DNA from: Elusimicrobiota bacterium
GTDB lineage: Bacteria > Elusimicrobiota > Elusimicrobia > 2-01-FULL-59-12
DNA length: 24,742 nt
NCBI GenBank assembly: GCA_041486625.1
Contig: JBGPLV010000001.1
Location: forward strand, 1 to 24,742
Direction of reading: 5' to 3'
Shown here: positions 4,591 through 24,742 of the stretch, one piece after another
Position numbering within the stretch: the stretch's first letter is position 1
Layout of the letters: every line of letters begins with the position of its first letter
Program-made: the position numbers and the translations under genes
Notes under the pieces: model-generated
What the model saw: only the letters and a program-made list of their open reading frames with translations
Told to the model about the DNA's origin: nothing
The model's database searches: none

Positions 4591-6873
4591 TTAAGCGGGC
4601 ACCGGCTTTTGATAGGCGGCCAGCACATTGTGCGCCTGCTGCATCTCCGCCAGCGAGACGAGGAAGGCCAGGGTGGATTCGGCCCCTTGGTTCTGGTTCA
4701 CCCGGTCCACGTGCAGCCCGTCCCGGCAGCCGCCGGTATTGGGATCGTAGAGGAAAAGGCCCAGGTCGTTCCGTCCCAAAAACCAGTCAAAGGCACGGCG
4801 CGCCTGATTAAACCAGTAATCATCCGAGGTGCACCGATAAGCTTCTAAGCAAGCGGACACCATGGCCTGAACCTCGATGGGTTGTTGGTCAAAATGGGCC
4901 GGGACGCCGCCGCGCTTATAAAAACCATTAGAGCCGATCGGACGGAGATAACCCCCTTCGGCGGTCTGGATTTTGGTGAGCCAGCGCAGAGTCTTCAAAC
5001 CCGTCTCGAGCACATGGGCCCGCGCAGTCGACCGGCCGCTTAAAATCAGCGCATGAGAAAGCCCGGCGTTCATATAGGTGACCGAGTCTTCGAACCAGGG
5101 CCACTCGGGGGCGGCGGTGCGTTCGTAGAGTCCCATTAGAAGGTCCGTCAGGGCGTCCCGCACTTGACTTACCTGACGATCTCCGTTGAACCGGCGCAGG
5201 TATTCGTGGGCGCCCATCAAGGCCAGCGCCCAGGCCCGGGGCGAGCTGAATTCGGTGACCGGAGCGAGCGCTTGCGCGAAAACATGTCCCGCCAGGGCTT
5301 GAAACCCGGCGTTCTTCGACCGGCCCACGCAGGTCCCCAGGGCCAAGAGCGCGCGACCGCAGGAATCCTCGGAGATGGCCTCATCTCTCCAGGACCGGTT
5401 GAATTCCATGACATTGTGAAAACGCCTTAGCTTCGGGTCGAAGGCGTATTGAAGGAAGGCGGCGTAGGTGCTGGCGGCGTTTAATAGACGGGGAGAATCT
5501 TCCCCCAACTCTTCCAGAAGCACCGTCATGATCAGGGCGCGGGCGTTGTCGTCGGTGCAATATCCGGTGGAAAAATTCGGCACGGCCACGATGGCGTGTT
5601 GAAAGAGCCCGGTGGAGTCGGTCATGCGGTAGAGATGGTCGAGCTTCATTTCGGGAAGTTCGGTGAGCTGTTTGTCCAGCGTCTTCACCATGAATAGCTT
5701 TCGCGTCAGGCCGGCCCGTTCGTTCCGGGCTTTTTCAAAGGACTGCATGTAGGAACCCGCCACGTTGCCCCATACCATTTCCCGCCCCATTTTGTAGGCG
5801 TTCTCGCGCATGGCATTGCGCCGGGGATCGTCCGTCAGAAGCCCCGTCACCGCCCGGGCGATGGCGTCCGGGTCGTTGAAGGGAACCAGCACCCCGCGGT
5901 CATCTGCCAAAAGCTCCTGGGCATACCAATAGGGCGTGGACACCACCGCCTTGCCCGCGCCGAAACAGTAGGCCAGCGATCCGGATGTAATCTGGGTCTC
6001 ATTCAAGTAGGGGGTAATGTAGATATCCGCAGCGCCGATGAACTCCTTCAGCTCCGCCAGTTCCACGAACCGGTTGTAAAAGATCACGTTTTTTTGAACG
6101 CCGTTTTTTTCGGCCAAGAGTTCCAGGCTCAAACGGTAAGACTCGCCCGCATCACGCAGAAGGTGCGGATGGGTCGCTCCCAAAATGATGTACACCACGT
6201 TGGGGATCTCGGCCGCGATTTTGGGAAGGGCGTTGAGCACATTCTCAATGCCCTTGTTGGGAGAGAGCAGACCGAACGTCAAAAGCACCTGCTTGCCCTC
6301 CACGCCGAAGAGGTCCTTGTAAAAGCTGGAATCGACGAAGGAGGTTTCCGGAATGCCGTGGGGAATCCTGTCGATCTTGGCGGCAGGCGCCTTGTAAACG
6401 TCCTTCAAGAACCCCTCTCCCTTTTGGGACATCACCACGAGGCGCGTAGACATTTGAATCAGTTCCTTCATCACACGCTTTTGATCGGCGTTGGGCTCTT
6501 TGAGCACGGTGTGCAGCGTGGTCACGATGGGAATGTTCACCTCGCGCAGGAGGGCGAGTAAGTGCCCGCCCGCTGTTCCACCGTAGATGCCGAACTCATG
6601 CTGAACGCTGATCACGTCCACGTCGCTGATGCTCAAAAAATCCGCCGCCCGTCGGTAGGACGCCAGGTTCTGTTCCTCAATTTCAAAGCGGACCTCCGGG
6701 GGGTAGTCGTACCCTTCCTCCACGTCGTTCACGGGGACGGAAAAGCACTGTACCTTGGGAAACTGGACCGCCACGGAGGTGCACAAATCCGTCGTGAAGG
6801 TGGCGATGCCGCACCTCCGCGGCAGGTAATCCCCCAAAAAGGCGATGGTTCTGATCTCAGAGCGAGGTTTCAT
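4591..6873 (-). CDS. Glycosyltransferase family 4 fused to a C-terminal (alpha/alpha)6 glycosidase-like domain
   Basis: PRRCGIATFT, QHEFGIYGG, FGLLSPNKGIE and PY...QITSGSL...GKAVVSTPY motifs; C-terminal GLFQHA...YCTDDNARAL and NQNQGAESTLA. ATG 6873 preferred; GTG 6876 is the alternative start. Confidence 0.92.
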   Translation of the reverse strand: MKPRSEIRTIAFLGDYLPRRCGIATFTTDLCTSVAVQFPKVQCFSVPVNDVEEGYDYPPEVRFEIEEQNLASYRRAADFLSISDVDVISVQHEFGIYGGTAGGHLLALLREVNIPIVTTLHTVLKEPNADQKRVMKELIQMSTRLVVMSQKGEGFLKDVYKAPAAKIDRIPHGIPETSFVDSSFYKDLFGVEGKQVLLTFGLLSPNKGIENVLNALPKIAAEIPNVVYIILGATHPHLLRDAGESYRLSLELLAEKNGVQKNVIFYNRFVELAELKEFIGAADIYITPYLNETQITSGSLAYCFGAGKAVVSTPYWYAQELLADDRGVLVPFNDPDAIARAVTGLLTDDPRRNAMRENAYKMGREMVWGNVAGSYMQSFEKARNERAGLTRKLFMVKTLDKQLTELPEMKLDHLYRMTDSTGLFQHAIVAVPNFSTGYCTDDNARALIMTVLLEELGEDSPRLLNAASTYAAFLQYAFDPKLRRFHNVMEFNRSWRDEAISEDSCGRALLALGTCVGRSKNAGFQALAGHVFAQALAPVTEFSSPRAWALALMGAHEYLRRFNGDRQVSQVRDALTDLLMGLYERTAAPEWPWFEDSVTYMNAGLSHALILSGRSTARAHVLETGLKTLRWLTKIQTAEGGYLRPIGSNGFYKRGGVPAHFDQQPIEVQAMVSACLEAYRCTSDDYWFNQARRAFDWFLGRNDLGLFLYDPNTGGCRDGLHVDRVNQNQGAESTLAFLVSLAEMQQAHNVLAAYQKPVPA

Positions 6874-6880
6874 CACTTAG

Positions 6881-16065: not shown

Positions 16066-16358
16066 TCGGGGGCGAGGGGTCTGACCAACGAACCACGCAT
16101 GACTTGGAGAAAGAGCTGACGGTGGAGGGGTATCGGCTGCATACGTGGTCGAATGGGCCGGAGTTTTGGTATCCCGTGCATGATCATCCGTATCAGAAGA
16201 TCATCGTGGTGCTGAAGGGGTCGATTACGTTTTATCTGCCGGGCGAGAAGCGGGAAGTGGCCATGAAAGCCGGGGAGCGCCTGGAGCTGGCGCCTCGCAC
16301 CGAACATTCCGCTTCCGTCGGCCCGGACGGCGTCACCTGCCTCGAAGGCCAGCGGTGA
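16062..16358 (+). CDS. Cupin-domain protein
   Basis: YPVHDHPYQKIIVVLKGSITF...LELAPRTEHSASVGPDGVTCLEG; ATGA overlap with the upstream gene. Confidence 0.85.
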   Translation: MIGGEGSDQRTTHDLEKELTVEGYRLHTWSNGPEFWYPVHDHPYQKIIVVLKGSITFYLPGEKREVAMKAGERLELAPRTEHSASVGPDGVTCLEGQR

Positions 16359-16483
16359 AGCTGACACGATACATCAAAGTGAAAGTTCGGGCGGGGGCGC
16401 GGCGAGACGCGTTTTCAATCAAGTCCGAACTCTGGATCGTGAAGGGGGTTCACACCCCGGCGAAAATTGTAGCGATCCGTTGA
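16355..16483 (+). pseudogene. Internally deleted DUF167/YggU-like remnant (42 aa)
   Basis: GTGA overlap with the cupin gene. MKLTRYIKVKVRAGARRDAF resembles the DUF167 N-terminus and IVKGVHTPAKIVAI the C-terminus; the central ANxxL helix is absent. Confidence 0.45.
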
Positions 16484-16515
16484 TGCGAAGAAATTAAGAG
16501 GTTTTTTTGCCTGTC

Positions 16516-16524
16516 TGCTATAAT
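16516..16524 (+). promoter_or_regulatory. Extended -10 promoter (TGcTATAAT) of the left tRNA half
   Basis: 5 nt upstream of C1 of the tRNA fragment. Confidence 0.7.
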
Positions 16525-16529
16525 AGCGT

Positions 16530-16606
16530 CGCGGGGTGGAGCAGTCTGGCATGCGCTTTCCTCTCGTGCGCAAGCCCCACGGTCGTAAGTGGGGTAGCTC
16601 GTCGGG
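16530..16606 (+). pseudogene. 5' half of initiator tRNA-Met with a 45-nt D-loop insertion (attL-like)
   Basis: 16530-16549 plus 16595-16606 match 21489-21520 at 31/32 nt; insertion at 16550-16594; no 3' half follows. Confidence 0.85.
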
Positions 16607-16715
16607 GAAGATTCATAATTCTATCTACTTTTAGATCTATTTAGCTCTTCTACGTTGCGTTTAATACCCCTATTTCGTCCTGTTTAGCCCGCCTTCGCTG
16701 GACCGAGTTGTAGAG

Positions 16716-16745
16716 CCGATCAGAGTTCCGATCAGCACCGATGAG
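16716..16745 (+). repeat. CCGATCAG direct repeats, left cluster (putative integrase arm-type sites)
   Basis: CCGATCAG at 16716 and 16728, CCGATGAG at 16738. Confidence 0.7.
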
Positions 16746-16771
16746 CTATATAACGCTTTTCTATCGCTCAT

Positions 16772-16814
16772 ACTTGACGAATCACTTGACGAATACTGGA
16801 CGATCAGGTAGACT
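16772..16814 (+). promoter_or_regulatory. Fic gene promoter with tandem operator-like repeats
   Basis: TTGACG (16786), 17-nt spacer, TAGACT (16809), 6 nt, GTG; ACTTGACGAAT at 16772 and 16784 plus a degenerate third copy at 16795. Confidence 0.7.
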
Positions 16815-16820
16815 CTTCCC

Positions 16821-17846
16821 GTGCCTTACAAACCCTGTTTTACGATCACCTCTGAAATTCTACGGCGCCTGGAAACGATCCAGGCGTTGCATGCACGCAT
16901 CCAGGCCGCGGCTATAAAGCTCCCGGCACTGCCGCTCATCCAAAAGGATGTGGTTGTACGTTCCGCCCACGGATCAAGCGCGATCGAAGGTAATCCTCTG
17001 ACGTTGGAGGAAGCTCGGACGGTACTGGAGGGGAAAGATGTCCCCACCGCCACGCGCCGTTCACTTCAGGAAATCCGAAATGCCGCGGCGGCGATGAAAT
17101 TTATTCAGCGTCAAGGCGATGCCAAACTCATCCGCGAAGACGATGTCTTCAAAATTCATACTTTATTGGGTGCCGGAGATGCTCTAGACCGAGGACCGAT
17201 CGGGGCCTACCGCACGTACGGAGTTCAGGTGGGAGGCCATATCGCCCCACATTTTTCCGATGTCCCGCATTTTATGAAAGAGCTTCTGGAATGGCTTAAC
17301 AGCGAAGCTGCTCAGTGGCCGGCGGTCGTCAGCTCAGCGGTACTTCATTTCCGTTTTGAGTTTATTCATCCTTTTGGAGACGGCAATGGTCGTGCGGGCC
17401 GAGCGCTGGCGGCTTGGGAGCTGTACCGCCGGAAGTTTGATAGCCAACATATCTTCGCTGTCGATGAGACGCTCTGGAACAATCGGCGTCTTTATTATTC
17501 GGCTCTGGACCGCACGCAAAAACACCAACAGCAAGACTTATCTTCGTGGATTGAATTTATGGCGGAAATGGTGGAGATCACGCTTGATCAAACGTGGAAA
17601 CGCATGGATGATCTTCCACAGGCGAAGTCCCGTGAGAAGATTCATCTGACGCCACGGCAAGAAAAGCTGTTGAAACTTCTTCGCACTGGGCCTATGAGGC
17701 CCTCCGAGCTTCAAAAAGAATTGGAAGTCACCAAAGGCGGTTTACACTTTATGCTGAAGCCCCTACTCCACGCTGGACTCGTGCAGCGCGCAGGCGGCTA
17801 TAAAACGGGTGTATACCGCATCCCTGACGCACAAGAAAAAGTCTAA
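16821..17846 (+). CDS. Fic-family protein with N-terminal inhibitory motif and C-terminal winged HTH
   Basis: Canonical HPFGDGNGRAGR motif, SSAIEG (S/TxxxEG/N) motif, and LTPRQEKLL...ELEVTKGGLHFMLKPLLHAGLV wHTH. Confidence 0.93.
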   Translation: MPYKPCFTITSEILRRLETIQALHARIQAAAIKLPALPLIQKDVVVRSAHGSSAIEGNPLTLEEARTVLEGKDVPTATRRSLQEIRNAAAAMKFIQRQGDAKLIREDDVFKIHTLLGAGDALDRGPIGAYRTYGVQVGGHIAPHFSDVPHFMKELLEWLNSEAAQWPAVVSSAVLHFRFEFIHPFGDGNGRAGRALAAWELYRRKFDSQHIFAVDETLWNNRRLYYSALDRTQKHQQQDLSSWIEFMAEMVEITLDQTWKRMDDLPQAKSREKIHLTPRQEKLLKLLRTGPMRPSELQKELEVTKGGLHFMLKPLLHAGLVQRAGGYKTGVYRIPDAQEKV

Positions 17847-18153
17847 TGCAGCACCGTCCTCTGCCTGAAGTCGCTGAAGGCGACTTAACTCGCCGGTGCA
17901 GTCCCGACAAAATAGCTCGCCATCGGCGAGCGATATAGGGGACGGGACAGCGTTACGCGCACGGTCGGAAGGCGGCTCCTGCCGCCCACCTCTACCGCCG
18001 CACCCGATCGGCTTGCCAGGCCCGAGCGGGCGCCTCTCCCCCGGCCACGTCCGCCAAGCAGCATTGTCTCTGGATAAACAACTCCCCTTAGCCACTCCAT
18101 CAATTCAGCAGCCCCTTCCCGTTCCCGTCCTTATTGCCGAAAAAGTATCCTAG

Positions 18154-18173
18154 CCGATCAGAAATCCGAACAT
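18154..18173 (+). repeat. CCGATCAG repeat, internal cluster
   Basis: CCGATCAG at 18154 and a degenerate CCGAACAT 12 bp later at 18166. Confidence 0.5.
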
Positions 18174-18277
18174 CGGAGTAAAATGAAGTGTAACGAACTA
18201 CTATGAAATCCCCGCAAAAACAGCCAAAATAGCACCTAGCTTAAACGAAGACTGGTAGCTTCTAAGGCTAGGTCCTA

Positions 18278-21200
18278 TCACGTACCCCCGCTATTGTAAA
18301 AACCGAGTGCTTCCCATTGCTCTGCGGAAACTCCCAGGTGCGCGCGAACCGAATCGTTCAGTTCTCTCGAAAGGGTGATTATTTTGTCATTAAAAAATGA
18401 TTTGTCACGGTCCGTTCTCACTCTCACCAGCCCATCGTAAGACAGTTCAATTGTCTTTGCTGCGTGTGCGATCGCGTTATGACGCGAAACGTCATCTTTT
18501 TTATCCCAATTAACTCGGCGAATCGGAAGCAATTTTAGACGATTCCAGAAATATTCGTATATTCCTGCGCTTTTTAGCTTCGCAAGTTTAAGGAAACGTA
18601 GGGTTAACAAATCTGCGTTCAGTAATCCTAAAAAATAGTACAGGTTTTCCTTCGTTTGTTTAGGAAATAAAACCGTGGTGTCTGTAAGGCCAAGAAAACA
18701 ATTCGTGGAATCTACTGCGAACCGATTATTAGACGCTAAATATGGGCAAAGAACCTTTGGGCCACCATATCTTTCTTCATGCAATGGCCATGTGAATTTC
18801 CACCACTTACAGTCTCCGCGAAGGTATGCGGCCCGCGCTGTAAGAGATGCCTTATTTCTGTTGAGGTGCTCCTGCAATTTCGCGGGAAGTTGTGAGAAAT
18901 CATCAAACCTTTCAAGATAAATTACGAATTTATTCTCATGCTCGATATTAAACTTCTGAATTTGAGAATTCGTCGCTCTCTCGAAAAATTGACCCGCTTT
19001 AAGCTCAAACGCATCTATTTCTGCCTTCGTCCGTTCGCCGAACACGTCATTACATCCAGTCTCCATCCCTTTCCCTAACCAGAATGCCTCGGACAAGGGG
19101 ACAGTATTGCAATCAATCAGCGAGATTATCTTTTCCTCTTGGTCTGTGACGACGTTCCAAGGCTCCGCTCCGAGTGCGTTTGAAGGTTGTAGAGTCCTCT
19201 GAAATGCTTCCGCATTAGCGAGAGTCTCTGCGAGATTCGGCTCGTTCTCAAATTCGGGTTTTAAGTCTATTCTTTCAGTTGATATTCCTCGCTTCTTGGA
19301 CTCGAAACAGATAATGCAGGTAGTAACTCCAACCCCGGGGAAAACGTACCTGTTCTTAAAATCGACTATCTGAGTGATGGACAATTCATCATCATTGCTT
19401 TGCGAAGCTTTGTGGCCTTGAATGCTTCCAACATAGCGCGCGATACAATAAAGCCATTCTTTCCTTTACTGAGGCTTTGCGCCTTTCTGAGAAAATAAAA
19501 AAGCACATCTGTCTTATCGGTATGTACGTCAGGATATCCGCGCTTGAGAAGGGCTAAACGATAATCTTTACGACCCCATGTTGAATCGACGTTGTAATAT
19601 GGCGGGTTTCCAATGACTGCGTCGAATCCGCCTTTATTGAGAATCTTTCCGAAGTGCTGGTGGTAATCGACGGGATTGAGTGACCTCTCTTGCTCTTGAG
19701 TCAGTGTGCTAGACCTGGTGATTTCTCTGTCGATTATCGAATTTCCACAGATTATATTCTTGGCTAAAGATGGAAGAATGGCGTTTTTGAATTCCTCTTG
19801 GTAATTTATTGCGGTCTCGTGAGTTTCCTCTTCGAGAAGTTTCAGTGATAGCGACAGCTGCGCGACTTCGACTGCCTGAGGATCCAAGTCTATTCCGAAC
19901 ACATTGCTGACCAATATATCCCGTTTCTTTTGTAGCGTGAGATGGTAATGCCCATCGCTGTCCTGAAAGCAATCTTTAAGAGTGGTTTCGCTCGGATTCG
20001 CGTTGTAGTATGAGGTGTGATATCGCAGAAGTTCATCGTATATACCCAGCAGGAAGGAACCGCTGCCACAGGCAATATCAATGAATTTTAAAGCCGATAT
20101 CGCCTTTGGGGTCTTATTTTGAATTAGGGGCCGAATTGTATTTGACACTATATAATTCACAATTGCTCGTGGTGTGTAATAGATGCCATTGGCTTTTCGG
20201 AGTTCTGGTTTAGGTCGCAGTTCAATTCGTCCGTCACGGTTTTCAATGACTTTCCCGAGAAAGCGCTCATAAATTGAACCCAAAATCTCGATCGGAACAG
20301 TATTGAAGAGATAAGGAGATGTGTCAGAACGGAAGTCATCGGTGACATCCACAAAGACCCGCTGATCAACTTCAAAGGATTGCCGGTCTAGGATTACATG
20401 CTCTTTAAAGACTACGCCGTTATAAGCGTCATCCATAGTCTGTCGCACAGAAACGAAGTCCCGCCACGGCGTTGCAGATTGTCCGCAGCGCTCAAGGATA
20501 GGTTCTGTTTCGATAGCCTTATCTTCCAAGAAGCGAGTTAGTACAAGTCTGTCGATAGTTCGCTGAGTCATTTCGGTTAAATCTGAATCCGAATAAGCCG
20601 GGTTGATTCCTGTAAATGCGCGAGCCAGTGTGAGTCGGGCTGTTTCGATAGTCTGTAAAAAATCGTCATCCATTGGTTTCGGCGGTGTTCGCAACAGCTG
20701 TAACTGGCGGTGGGGTAGACCGGCGGTTGATATTTTTGAGATAAAGCGCTGGATTGACCCGGAACCTACTGCCTGACGAGAAAGAAGGCTGTAGATTTCG
20801 CGAAATTTTAACTCGTCAGCATATTCTGAATAGTGGTAAATCTTTGCCCAGCGGTTGAGAACGGTATCATGATGGGGCTTATAGCGAGAGTCAATTATGT
20901 GAAGTTCTCGGAAGTTGGTTAGAACGACAATGGGGGTCTGACCATTCCAGCCGTAACGGATTGCTTGGAAATAATTGTCGGCTGTTGTTAATGGAACCGA
21001 AGGTTTTTTGGCCTCTAGGAACCAAACTGGGTCTTGGAAGTTAGGCTGAATGAAGAACGCATAATCTGCTTTCTTCCGGTGCCCCATGACGGTCACTCGT
21101 TGTTCAAGTTTGACCTCTTGGGCCGCGGGGTTTTATTGCGTCACGTGCCCTACGTCCCATCCTAAAGCAATCAACAACTCGTTTAGATAGTCGTTTCGGA

Positions 21201-21318
21201 GATGGGTTTCCTGATACTCAGGAGAAAGGTGGGTTTGCTCGTATGCTTGATAATGCGCAATACGGCGCTTCACATAAGCAAACGCTGTATCGAAACCAGT
21301 TCCAACAAGTTCTGCCAC
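18278..21318 (-). pseudogene. Type IIG (Eco57I/TaqI-C-like) restriction-modification fusion gene with two lesions
   Basis: Three ORF pieces join into one gene: in-frame TAA at 21135-21133 (WDVGHVTQ*NPAAQEVKLE) and a 1-nt frameshift near 19385 (KLRKAMMMN/LSITQIVDF). ADYAF..FLEAKKP nuclease motif, DIACGSGSF motif I, NPPY motif IV and a C-terminal specificity domain. Confidence 0.88.
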
Positions 21319-21404
21319 TTGCAGAAGATAGCCTTTTACTTATATTGCGGTCAATGAAACACCTGAACCCACTTAGCCTGACATGGCTGTAATTAGTATT
21401 CTTG

Positions 21405-21424
21405 CCGATCAGTAATCCGATCAG
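21405..21424 (+). repeat. CCGATCAG direct repeats, right cluster
   Basis: CCGATCAG at 21405 and 21417 (same 12-bp period as the left pair); CGGATCAG at 21455. Confidence 0.7.
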
Positions 21425-21474
21425 CATCATAAATCACCCCGTCGGACAAATTAACGGATCAGCTCGTTATCCCG

Positions 21475-21483
21475 TGCTATAAT
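21475..21483 (+). promoter_or_regulatory. Extended -10 promoter (TGcTATAAT) of the intact tRNA
   Basis: 5 nt upstream of C1, the same spacing as at 16516. Confidence 0.75.
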
Positions 21484-21488
21484 GGCTT

Positions 21489-21827
21489 CGCGGGGTGGAG
21501 CAGCCTGGTAGCTCGTCGGGCTCAATTCCGCAGAATCGAAGTCCAATCCGCCAATTAGATTCTGCGGTGGGCAACGCGTGGAGAAATCCGCGCGGGTTCT
21601 CCTGTCAAAGTCGGGGAAGCCACTAGCGGTGGTAATCCCGAGCCAAGGTCGCTAGAAGTTTAGCGACAAGGTGTAGAGACTTGATGGCAGGTACCCTAGC
21701 GCCGCACGGCGGCAAGGGTAAAGGGAAAGTCCAGACCACAAACTGGCTGATGTTTGGCGAGGCGACGAAAGCCGAAGTGGTAAGCATAACCCGAAGGTCG
21801 TAGGTTCAAATCCTACCCCCGCAACCA
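21489..21827 (+). tRNA. Initiator tRNA-Met (CAT), intron-containing
   Basis: Exon 1 (21489-21522) plus exon 2 (21785-21827) give a 77-nt CGCGGGGTGGAGCAGCCTGGTAGCTCGTCGGGCT/CATAACCCGAAGGTCGTAGGTTCAAATCCTACCCCCGCAACCA, with C1:A72 mismatch, GGG/CCC anticodon stem and encoded CCA. Confidence 0.96.
21523..21784 (+). ncRNA. Group I self-splicing intron (262 nt, no ORF)
   Basis: 5' splice site after U, terminal G. P1 GCU/CA pairs with UGGGC giving a U.G pair at the junction; P2 has a GAAA loop; P3 21601-07/21685-91; P4 21611-16/21636-41; P7 GAGACU 21676-81/AGUCC 21728-32; P8 TACCCT/AGGGTA; P9.0 ACCAC/GTGGT. Confidence 0.93.
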
Positions 21828-21859
21828 GGTGTTCACTGAAGGGTGGACACCTGGTTTTT
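21825..21859 (+). terminator. Rho-independent terminator after the tRNA
   Basis: CCAGGTGTTCAC-tgaagg-GTGGACACCTGG followed by TTTTT. Confidence 0.85.
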
Positions 21860-21882
21860 CGTTTTTGGGGGAAATGACGTCC

Positions 21883-23805: not shown

Positions 23806-23827
23806 ATTTTAGCAACCAATGTATAAT
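23806..23827. promoter_or_regulatory. Back-to-back -10 elements of divergent leaderless genes
   Basis: Minus-strand TGcTAAAAT (-10 at 23811-23806) lies 6 nt before the trmJ ATG; plus-strand TATAAT (23822-23827) lies 6 nt before ATG 23834. Confidence 0.65.
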
Positions 23828-23833
23828 CGCGGC

Positions 23834-24742
23834 ATGTCAAAATCCTGCCTGATCAAAGCGGGCCTTGTTTTCGCGCTCTTTATGAGCGCCATCGTGGGAT
23901 GGCATTGCCTCAACGACCGTCCCTCCTCCATGGATGAGACCAAGCACATGCAGCTGGCGATGGACTACCGGGACTGGCTCGTGCACGACGTGCCGCTCCA
24001 AAATCCTTGGGACCATGTCTACCCGCCTGTCTATCATTTCTCCATTTTCCCGGCCATGAGCGTCGGTGTTCCCACCGAATCCAAAGCGGTCATAACACAT
24101 GGCCTCTACGCATTGATTTTTCTCATCGGATGCCTGCTGCTGGGGCGCGCTCACGAGCTTTCCGATGACGAAAGCCTGGCGGCGGCCTTGCTCACGCTCG
24201 GATATTGCTACGTCCTTTGGGCTGCCCGCCGCGCGCTGACGGATTTTCCGCTGATGACATGGGCGACATTCACCATGGGAGTTCTGGCTTGGACGCGCGG
24301 ATTTGGATCGCGAAAGGTCAGCCTCTGGTGGGGGATCGCGGCGGGCGTCGGATTGCTCCTTAAGTTCACGTTTGCTTTCTTTTTCATCCTGCCGGTCCTC
24401 TGGACGATCCTTCGCGGCCGTGAGCCGGGCCGATTTAAAAATGGGATCTTCGCTTTGGCGGTCGCCGCCGTCCTGGGCGGATCCTGGTATTATTGGAACA
24501 GTGCCGTCTTTCTGGACAAGGCGTCAGGGTTGGTCAACGAAGTCACGGTCAGCGGCGGAGATCCCCACACGTTGGCCGGCTGGCTTTTCTATCTGAGATT
24601 ATGGCCGCAGCAGCTGGGCGTTCCGAACCTGATATTCACGGCTCTCGGAATGATGTTGGCCTTGGGCTCCAGTTTTCGTTCCCGGCGAGAAGGAGACGGG
24701 CTGTTGTGGGCGTGGTTTTTCTCCGGGTATCTCATTTTAAGC
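23834..24742 (+). CDS. Glycosyltransferase family 39 / ArnT-like membrane protein (3'-partial; absent from the ORF track)
   Basis: Open from ATG 23834 to the window end: MSKSCLIKAGLVF...DRPSSMDETKH (DE motif), YPPVYH, ALTDFPL and GLLLKFTF motifs, multiple TM helices. Confidence 0.85.
   Translation, partial: MSKSCLIKAGLVFALFMSAIVGWHCLNDRPSSMDETKHMQLAMDYRDWLVHDVPLQNPWDHVYPPVYHFSIFPAMSVGVPTESKAVITHGLYALIFLIGCLLLGRAHELSDDESLAAALLTLGYCYVLWAARRALTDFPLMTWATFTMGVLAWTRGFGSRKVSLWWGIAAGVGLLLKFTFAFFFILPVLWTILRGREPGRFKNGIFALAVAAVLGGSWYYWNSAVFLDKASGLVNEVTVSGGDPHTLAGWLFYLRLWPQQLGVPNLIFTALGMMLALGSSFRSRREGDGLLWAWFFSGYLILS

Follow-up and report, generated by a model that had tools for sequence, protein, structure and literature searches.

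The 24,742-nucleotide stretch of Elusimicrobiota DNA analyzed here (hereafter, the window) contains an initiator tRNA gene, tRNA-fMet, whose 5' part is found a second time further upstream. In the interval between the two copies, a tyrosine integrase is likely to have built two genomic islands in tandem, using the initiator tRNA gene in reversed (5') configuration. The interval consists of two tandem units, A (~16607-18270) and B (~18270-21474), split by a degenerate copy of the right end at 18140-18269; the single island of the initial annotation has thus to be replaced by two. The window is contig C1 of a metagenome-assembled genome (MAG) of 1.79 Mb (G000), which is made of 259 contigs and is 73% complete, and the public runs that carry this stretch are sediment metagenomes. 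Coordinates without a locus name refer to the window, and features lie on the + strand unless otherwise indicated.

The two copies of the tRNA-fMet 5' part

Nucleotides 1-32 of tRNA-fMet occur twice on the same strand, with 31/32 identical positions. The repeat block starts at the -10 box rather than at tRNA +1: the first part of the left copy (attL part 1, 16516-16549), which comprises an extended -10 promoter (TGCTATAAT, 16516-16524), 5 nt and displaced tRNA nucleotides 1-20, shows 31/34 identity to 21475-21508 at a spacing of 4959 nt, and its second part (attL part 2, 16595-16606), which holds displaced nucleotides 21-32 (TAGCTCGTCGGG), is identical to 21509-21520 (12/12). A 45-nt insert separates the two parts. 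The tRNA homology of the left copy stops at 16606, and only the right copy, with its own TGCTATAAT promoter at 21475-21483, continues into an intron (21523-21784) and a 3' half (21785-21827). The duplication, the promoter at each copy and the restriction of the intron to the right copy had been reported in the initial annotation, and all three were borne out, with the addition that the left copy is split. An intact gene (21489-21827) with a co-oriented upstream fragment (16530-16549 and 16595-16606) is what the Islander criteria describe as the 5' configuration.

One pair of CCGATCAG repeats follows the left copy after ~110 nt, and another precedes the right copy by ~65 nt (21405-21424); within each pair, the repeats are 12 nt apart. 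The first pair (16716-16723 and 16728-16735) belongs to a conserved left end, or P' arm (16607-16745), which was delimited by nhmmer and alignment; the second (21405-21412 and 21417-21424) belongs to a conserved right end, or P arm (21395-21474), delimited by repeat families. These pairs would be arm-type sites of the integrase. The middle junction (18140-18269), identified by alignment to the right end, contains one CCGATCAG (18154-18161) and a second repeat in degenerate form (CCGAACA), and further on a degraded -10 box and the tRNA-like sequence CTGGTAGCTTCTAAGGCT (18252-18269). The three junctions are thus alike in having CCGATCAG pairs, a -10 box and tRNA-like sequence with matching spacing. 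At the middle junction, GC content drops from ~54% to ~45%. Upstream of attL there are no CCGATCAG arms, in contrast with the junction copies found inside arrays, and attL part 1 is probably the original host copy.

The right copy, attR (21475-21522, from the repeat match and ARAGORN), would combine the extended -10 promoter supplied by the element with the 5' exon of tRNA-fMet, which ARAGORN places at 21489-21522 when introns are allowed. With that setting, ARAGORN restores a tRNA-Met(CAT) with an intron of 262 nt. The intron (21523-21784), predicted by Rfam RF00028 and ARAGORN, interrupts the anticodon loop between U33 and C34, and is followed by the 3' exon (21785-21827), which together with an intrinsic terminator spans 21785-21866; the terminator, a strong prediction, is found at 21823-21866, just downstream of the tRNA. 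The borders read GGGCT/CAAT at the 5' splice site and TAAG/CATAACCC at the 3' splice site, with a U before the 5' splice site and a terminal G. Placed in the anticodon loop and with these borders, the sequence can be classified as a predicted group I intron, although its score against RF00028 (43.7 bits, E 7e-9) is under the gathering score of 50. Neither ARAGORN by default nor Rfam at gathering thresholds detects anything in the window: the tRNA is missed because the intron hides it, and the intron because its score is just under the cut-off.

A C1/A72 mismatch and GGG/CCC in the anticodon stem identify the right-hand tRNA as an initiator, the sole one found in the assembled part of the 73%-complete genome. 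The intron is part of the host gene and lies outside the island; it is absent from the tRNA-fMet genes of G002, G004, G005, G007 and G009. A tRNA-fMet group I intron is found in G000 and in the distant relatives G011, G012 and G025 (74-77% identity). As it is absent in G002, a complete single-contig genome of the same genus as G000, the intron has been gained or lost on a short time scale.

The 45-nt insert of the left copy (16550-16594), located between tRNA nucleotides 20 and 21 by sequence reading, has two hairpins and a predicted fold of -18.3 kcal/mol. Its second hairpin (16573-16594) is identical to copies at C24:10919-10939 and C106:870-891 in the same assembly, where a family of 16 such hairpins (with stems of at least 5 bp) can be recognized. 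The family shares the loop GGTCGTA(A/G)G, and its stems vary with compensating changes (e.g., attcccg...cgggaat); judging from this pattern, its members look like REP-type (repetitive extragenic palindromic) elements. The insert is therefore best read as the secondary insertion of a REP-like element. Excision would rebuild a tRNA-fMet with a 45-nt insert, and the array is therefore probably fixed in place. Displaced tRNA-fMet 5' fragments at L012:3581-3675 (G002, site 2) and L020:10421-10530 (G005:C51) also carry different hairpin inserts at almost the same spot of the D-loop region; one insert (CCCGCCTCCGCCAAGGCTTCGGCGGG) is common to both fragments despite their belonging to different genera.

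Conserved ends, integrase and cargo

The left end (~130 nt, closing with two CCGATCAG) was matched at two sites in G002 and in G005, G001, G009 and G007, with nhmmer E values from 1e-17 to 1e-7. The recurring right end consists of two CCGATCAG, a promoter and tRNA nucleotides 1-33, and the cargo differs among these genomes, so that the same att ends surround different cargo, as is required of islands of the Islander type. Complete junction units, made of arm, promoter, tRNA 5' part and left end, are present at the second site of G002 and in G001, G005, G009 and G007, and the boundary of tRNA homology always falls at nucleotides 31-33. Upstream of tRNA-fMet itself, the right-end arm is 86-92% identical in G002, G005 and G007. 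The intron-less tRNA-fMet of G002 has the same arm, promoter and 5' part; a second copy of the promoter and tRNA nucleotides 1-32, followed by the conserved 130-nt sequence and a CCGATCAG pair, is found ~1.5 kb upstream, and the two copies flank a 1.2-kb cassette with a Sel1-repeat gene. Because the same architecture is found in several other genomes, chance can be ruled out.

Directly before the middle junction, tblastn detected a pseudogene fragment of the C-terminus of a tyrosine integrase (17884-18111; E 1.2e-6), which matches residues 282-364 of an integrase of G007 (L014:11634-12782:-). The fragment is best kept at 18040-18111 and reads LSPGHVRQAALSLDKQLP, compared with LLPGHVRQAALTLDLQLP in the G007 protein. 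The claim that the island encodes no recombinase is thus correct for intact genes only, and the view that the element has decayed gains support: as only a C-terminal remnant remains, decay of the integrase is shown. No match to PF00589 was found on the window contig, which lacks the integrase inside the island that Islander demands, and a separate integrase search of the genome contigs yielded a single, irrelevant match. Remnants of the G007-type integrase are found in the window, in G000:C203, in G001:C337 and a second time in G007. In G007, two copies of the tRNA 5' part enclose an array of 19 kb, whose genes include a type I restriction-modification (RM) system, MT-A70, Schlafen/AlbA_2, a resolvase and the intact tyrosine integrase of 382 aa.

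The middle-junction variant also follows an integrase or a remnant in G007 (twice) and in G001, and homology stops exactly past GGCT. The remnant and the degenerate middle junction are 78% identical to a G007 locus, whereas housekeeping genes of these genera are 66-70% identical; the excess suggests mobilization in trans.

Homologs of the integrase were searched in 201 genomes of the class, and the 30 best loci were inspected for tRNA neighbors. An intact, co-oriented tRNA gene was found within ~150 nt past the integrase stop (30-140 nt) in 17 of the 30, and the tRNAs concerned are Thr, Val, Met, fMet, Lys, Ala, Ser, Glu, Arg and Gly. In G031 and G069, the distance between the integrase stop and tRNA-fMet is ~30 nt, and the promoter lies within. 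Ten integrase-tRNA loci were then taken with extra upstream DNA to look for 5' repeats. Three of them, at a tRNA-Ala and two tRNA-Arg genes, have exact direct repeats of 40-45 nt that run from tRNA nucleotide 1 to 40-44, lie 8.5-13.8 kb upstream and have their own TATAAT. Tyrosine integrases of this lineage therefore use tRNA genes in the 5' configuration. The core proposal of the initial annotation, that recombination of a site-specific element takes place within the 5' half of tRNA-fMet and brings in a new promoter and 5' part, is upheld by the same ends around other cargo and by the integrase remnant and its homologs.

The cargo is of the defense type, as initially annotated. Unit A carries a gene for a Fic-domain protein with a C-terminal helix-turn-helix (HTH) domain (16821-17846; Pfam, PADLOC). 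The protein matches Pfam Fic (5e-19) and the PADLOC profile SoFic PDLC03963 (2e-51; positions 20-346 of 361); a full-length profile match together with a Fic domain makes it a predicted defense gene of the SoFic type. A homolog in G002 is 88% identical. The gene has its own promoter-like site (16786-16814). Three tandem TTGACGAAT-like repeats (16770-16815) overlap the promoter of this Fic/HTH gene and are kept in the G002 copy (L013:6020-6070); they probably serve as an operator at which the C-terminal HTH acts in autoregulation. Just past the Fic stop, a sequence of ~100 nt (17849-17950) has relatives in G000:C155 and in several places of G006, G007 and G009, at 76-80% identity; it holds a GC-rich hairpin and may be a small repeat element.

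Unit B carries a type IIG RM gene on the - strand (18278-21096; Pfam, PADLOC) that is made of two open reading frames (ORFs), 19366-21096 and 18278-19384. The ORFs match Pfam Eco57I, MmeI_Mtase and TaqI_C and PADLOC REase_MTase_IIG (6e-118), and they span positions 77-615 and 621-996 of the PADLOC profile PDLC03604. GC content is ~45%, while most of the window outside the island has 55-60%. All domains are present; instead of forming the single polypeptide expected of a type IIG enzyme, they are spread over two overlapping frames of 576 and 368 aa. As homologs are single ORFs of 973-1042 aa, the window copy is frameshifted, either by mutation or by sequencing error.

Outside the array, protein synteny with relatives is limited to the GT4/GH130 genes upstream in G007 and to a homolog of the 23819-24742 ORF, which is found in inverted order near G002 site 2. 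The GT4 glycosyltransferase, which precedes both arrays (4591-6876 in the window; L015:10311-12671 in G007), shows 91% protein identity across genera, while other shared proteins are 55-76% identical; the excess may be due to recent transfer or to strong constraint. The DUF167 remnant that had been proposed upstream of the island has no Pfam match, and the neighboring ORF is weakly cupin-like.

A large serine recombinase gene abuts the 3' end of tRNA-fMet in G002 (L011:2977-4668) and in G004 (L018:4021-5355). In G002, its last codons overlap tRNA-fMet, and CCA is replaced there by TAG. Hence, both sides of tRNA-fMet may serve as landing sites in this lineage. The serine recombinase was considered as the mobilizing enzyme of the arrays and rejected, as the array ends have paired arm repeats and tyrosine-integrase remnants while the recombinase is on the 3' side.

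A proposed origin of the array and its alternatives

A scenario that would account for the array starts with a circular element whose attP, of ~250-280 nt, would comprise two CCGATCAG, a promoter, tRNA nucleotides 1 to ~32, ~130 conserved nucleotides and two further CCGATCAG. This attP would recombine with the chromosomal tRNA gene somewhere in nucleotides 17-32, with both the anticodon loop and the intron to the right of the crossover. The promoter and 5' fragment of the host would be pushed far to the left, forming attL, and the working gene would run on the promoter and 5' part of the element, forming attR. We infer that unit A, with SoFic and the integrase, arrived first, and that unit B, with its low-GC type IIG RM gene, was then added at the working tRNA, turning the right end of A into an internal junction. 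Later on, the integrase would have decayed to a C-terminal stub, the RM gene would have been frameshifted and a REP-like hairpin would have landed in the displaced fragment.

Placement of the crossover relies on the differences between attL and attR, which are found at positions -6, -3 and +16: if they are older than the integration, the crossover would lie to the right of +16, in nucleotides 17-32 (CTGGTAGCTCGTCGGG). The octamer CTGGTAGC is the best-kept part of degenerate junctions and also the site of the hairpin insert. The shared block ends before the anticodon loop in intron-bearing and intron-less hosts, and the blocks of the Ala and Arg relatives include the loop. An element of this kind would couple its own end to host viability and would avoid the intron-variable anticodon loop, as the initial annotation had envisaged.

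Several observations weigh against an origin by successive integrations. An intact cognate integrase is found neither in the window nor in the 73%-complete MAG, and the complete genome G002 has no close integrase homolog though it carries canonical cassettes. Among the integrase-tRNA loci examined, 7 of 10 showed no upstream 5' repeat within the available DNA; these are the tRNA-fMet-linked integrases of G031 and G069, searched over 8 and 30 kb, and five other loci. An empty site with the same flanking genes was not found, and synteny at the locus is poor; a candidate unoccupied site is the tRNA-fMet of G004, where the CCGATCAG arm is absent and a host gene lies 110 nt upstream, although its flanks show no synteny with the window. 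The contigs of public runs, which are of low depth (2-6x), revealed no junction of an excised or circular form. Unit B has no conserved left end. Finally, different genera share the degenerate middle junction, which in G007 comes after an intact integrase, so that simple decay after a second integration does not explain it; the degenerate variants are followed by unrelated cargo and have no conserved left arm. Conserved degenerate junctions point to the spread of composite or integrase-less units, or to cassette exchange.

Cassette exchange is the essence of the main rival explanation, which we regard as unlikely. The locus would be a platform with an attI- or dif-like site, made of the CCGATCAG pairs, the promoter and the tRNA 5' part, where an outside recombinase inserts or exchanges integrase-less defense cassettes and each time leaves a spare site on the left. 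The cargo of integrase-less units with conserved ends is indeed unrelated (SoFic and another Fic type, Sel1, and RM of types I and IIG), and a platform would accommodate the canonical cassettes of G002 in a genome without a close integrase homolog, the site-like structure on both sides of unit B and its G007 counterparts, which have no conserved left arm, and a decayed integrase-plus-junction module that is more alike between genera than housekeeping genes are. Most units, however, have asymmetric P and P' ends, as expected for attL and attR sites derived from attP; integrase genes or remnants stand at the right end of the units, more distant homologs are plain islands bounded by tRNA 5' repeats, and no integron-type integrase or attC-like ends were seen.

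Two further explanations are far less probable. One is that the left copy is a decayed second tRNA-fMet gene, originally complete, or a local tandem duplication, and that the genes in between come from unrelated events at a hot spot. The damage done to the left copy by the 45-nt insert, the strong degeneration of the middle copy and the rearranged surroundings of tRNA-fMet in relatives could be read in this way. We strongly disfavor it: the fragment ends at nucleotides 31-33 in six genomes and is followed by the same 130-nt sequence, with no tRNA remains; integrase remnants and paired arm repeats are found at the expected places; and none of the relatives searched has two complete tRNA-fMet genes at the locus, the finding that the initial annotation had named as fatal to its own proposal. 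The other, the least credible of all, is an assembly artefact, in which contigs of the MAG were misjoined at the short tRNA repeat. The fragmentation of the MAG (259 contigs, 73% complete) and the ~2-6x depth of the public runs leave room for such errors, but Logan contigs from separate runs (3 or 4 sediment metagenome runs, one of which may be the source sample) bridge the left (16151-16810), middle (17717-18546) and right (21299-21505) junctions with 0-1 differences, and the complete single-contig genome G002 has the same architecture. Misassembly, also foreseen as a possible refutation, is thus contradicted at the three junctions.

A tandem array built by a tyrosine integrase in reversed configuration hence remains our preferred reading. 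A more ambitious version is conceivable, though doubtful: a whole integrase clade of the class would be dedicated to reversed tRNA use, with the promoter placed between integrase stop and tRNA; in the initiator branch, the crossover would have moved from the anticodon loop to the D-arm/anticodon stem; and the cassettes would be mobilized in trans, yielding an integron-like defense platform at tRNA-fMet. If this is true, there is a crossover sublocation outside the three classical ones, at a site unaffected by the presence of the group I intron, and the cell transcribes its sole initiator tRNA from a promoter borne by an element.

Comparison with known systems

Integrons and other cassette platforms resemble the array in that small integrase-less defense cassettes with conserved ends are stacked at one site by a strong promoter. 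The window differs in having cassettes with their own promoters and a site inside a tRNA gene; no IntI-type integrase adjoins the array (in G000 or G002, no integrase of any kind does), and the ends are asymmetric P/P' arms instead of attC hairpins.

With classical tRNA islands and prophages (P4, HP1 and L5 type; Williams 2002 sublocation classes), the array has in common attP arm repeats that flank a core copying the tRNA, restoration of the gene and defense cargo, which is common in both. In the classical case, the element replaces the 3' part and can do without a promoter; in the window, replacement concerns the 5' part and the promoter, and the integrase is at the end that faces the 5' side of the intact gene. 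Satellites known as phage-inducible chromosomal islands (PICIs) damage displaced tRNA fragments, which has been discussed as an addiction-like effect (PMC10111431). In PICIs, as in the window, the displaced fragment can no longer rebuild a working tRNA upon excision. The PICI damage is a deletion made at a fixed acceptor-stem site during integration, while in the window a REP-like hairpin is inserted in the D-loop region, probably as a later accident.

Integration on the 5' side of a tRNA gene is a rare mirror of the usual rule, and the element has to bring along a promoter for an essential gene. Together with its relatives, the locus makes up a comparative set that includes conserved attP arms, one relative with an intact integrase and a dozen tRNA targets, and in which one can ask how target orientation is chosen, how promoter replacement affects tRNA supply and how SoFic and RM cassettes spread without an integrase of their own. 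There is also a warning for annotation: island finders that need a 3' fragment or an intact integrase miss arrays of this kind, and tRNA finders that do not allow introns miss the gene.

Islands in tRNA genes with a displaced 5' fragment and reversed target orientation were reportedly described by Zhao and Williams in 2002. Their article (J Bacteriol 184:859) is the one cited for islands with displaced 5' fragments in PMC6563490, and the Islander database has a 5' tDNA fragment in 159 of 3919 islands (PMC4383910). Like the array, islands of reversed orientation are bounded by an intact tRNA and a co-oriented upstream 5' fragment, the element supplies the 5' part and the promoter, the enzyme is a tyrosine integrase, and tandem arrays arise by re-use of the site. 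The window differs in that the target is an initiator tRNA with a group I intron, the integrase has decayed and the fragment carries a hairpin insert; in addition, the -10 box is part of its shared block, which does not reach the anticodon loop, while the block of the Ala and Arg relatives runs to nucleotides 40-44. The reversed (5') configuration is thus rare but already documented, and the array of the window is a new family within it.

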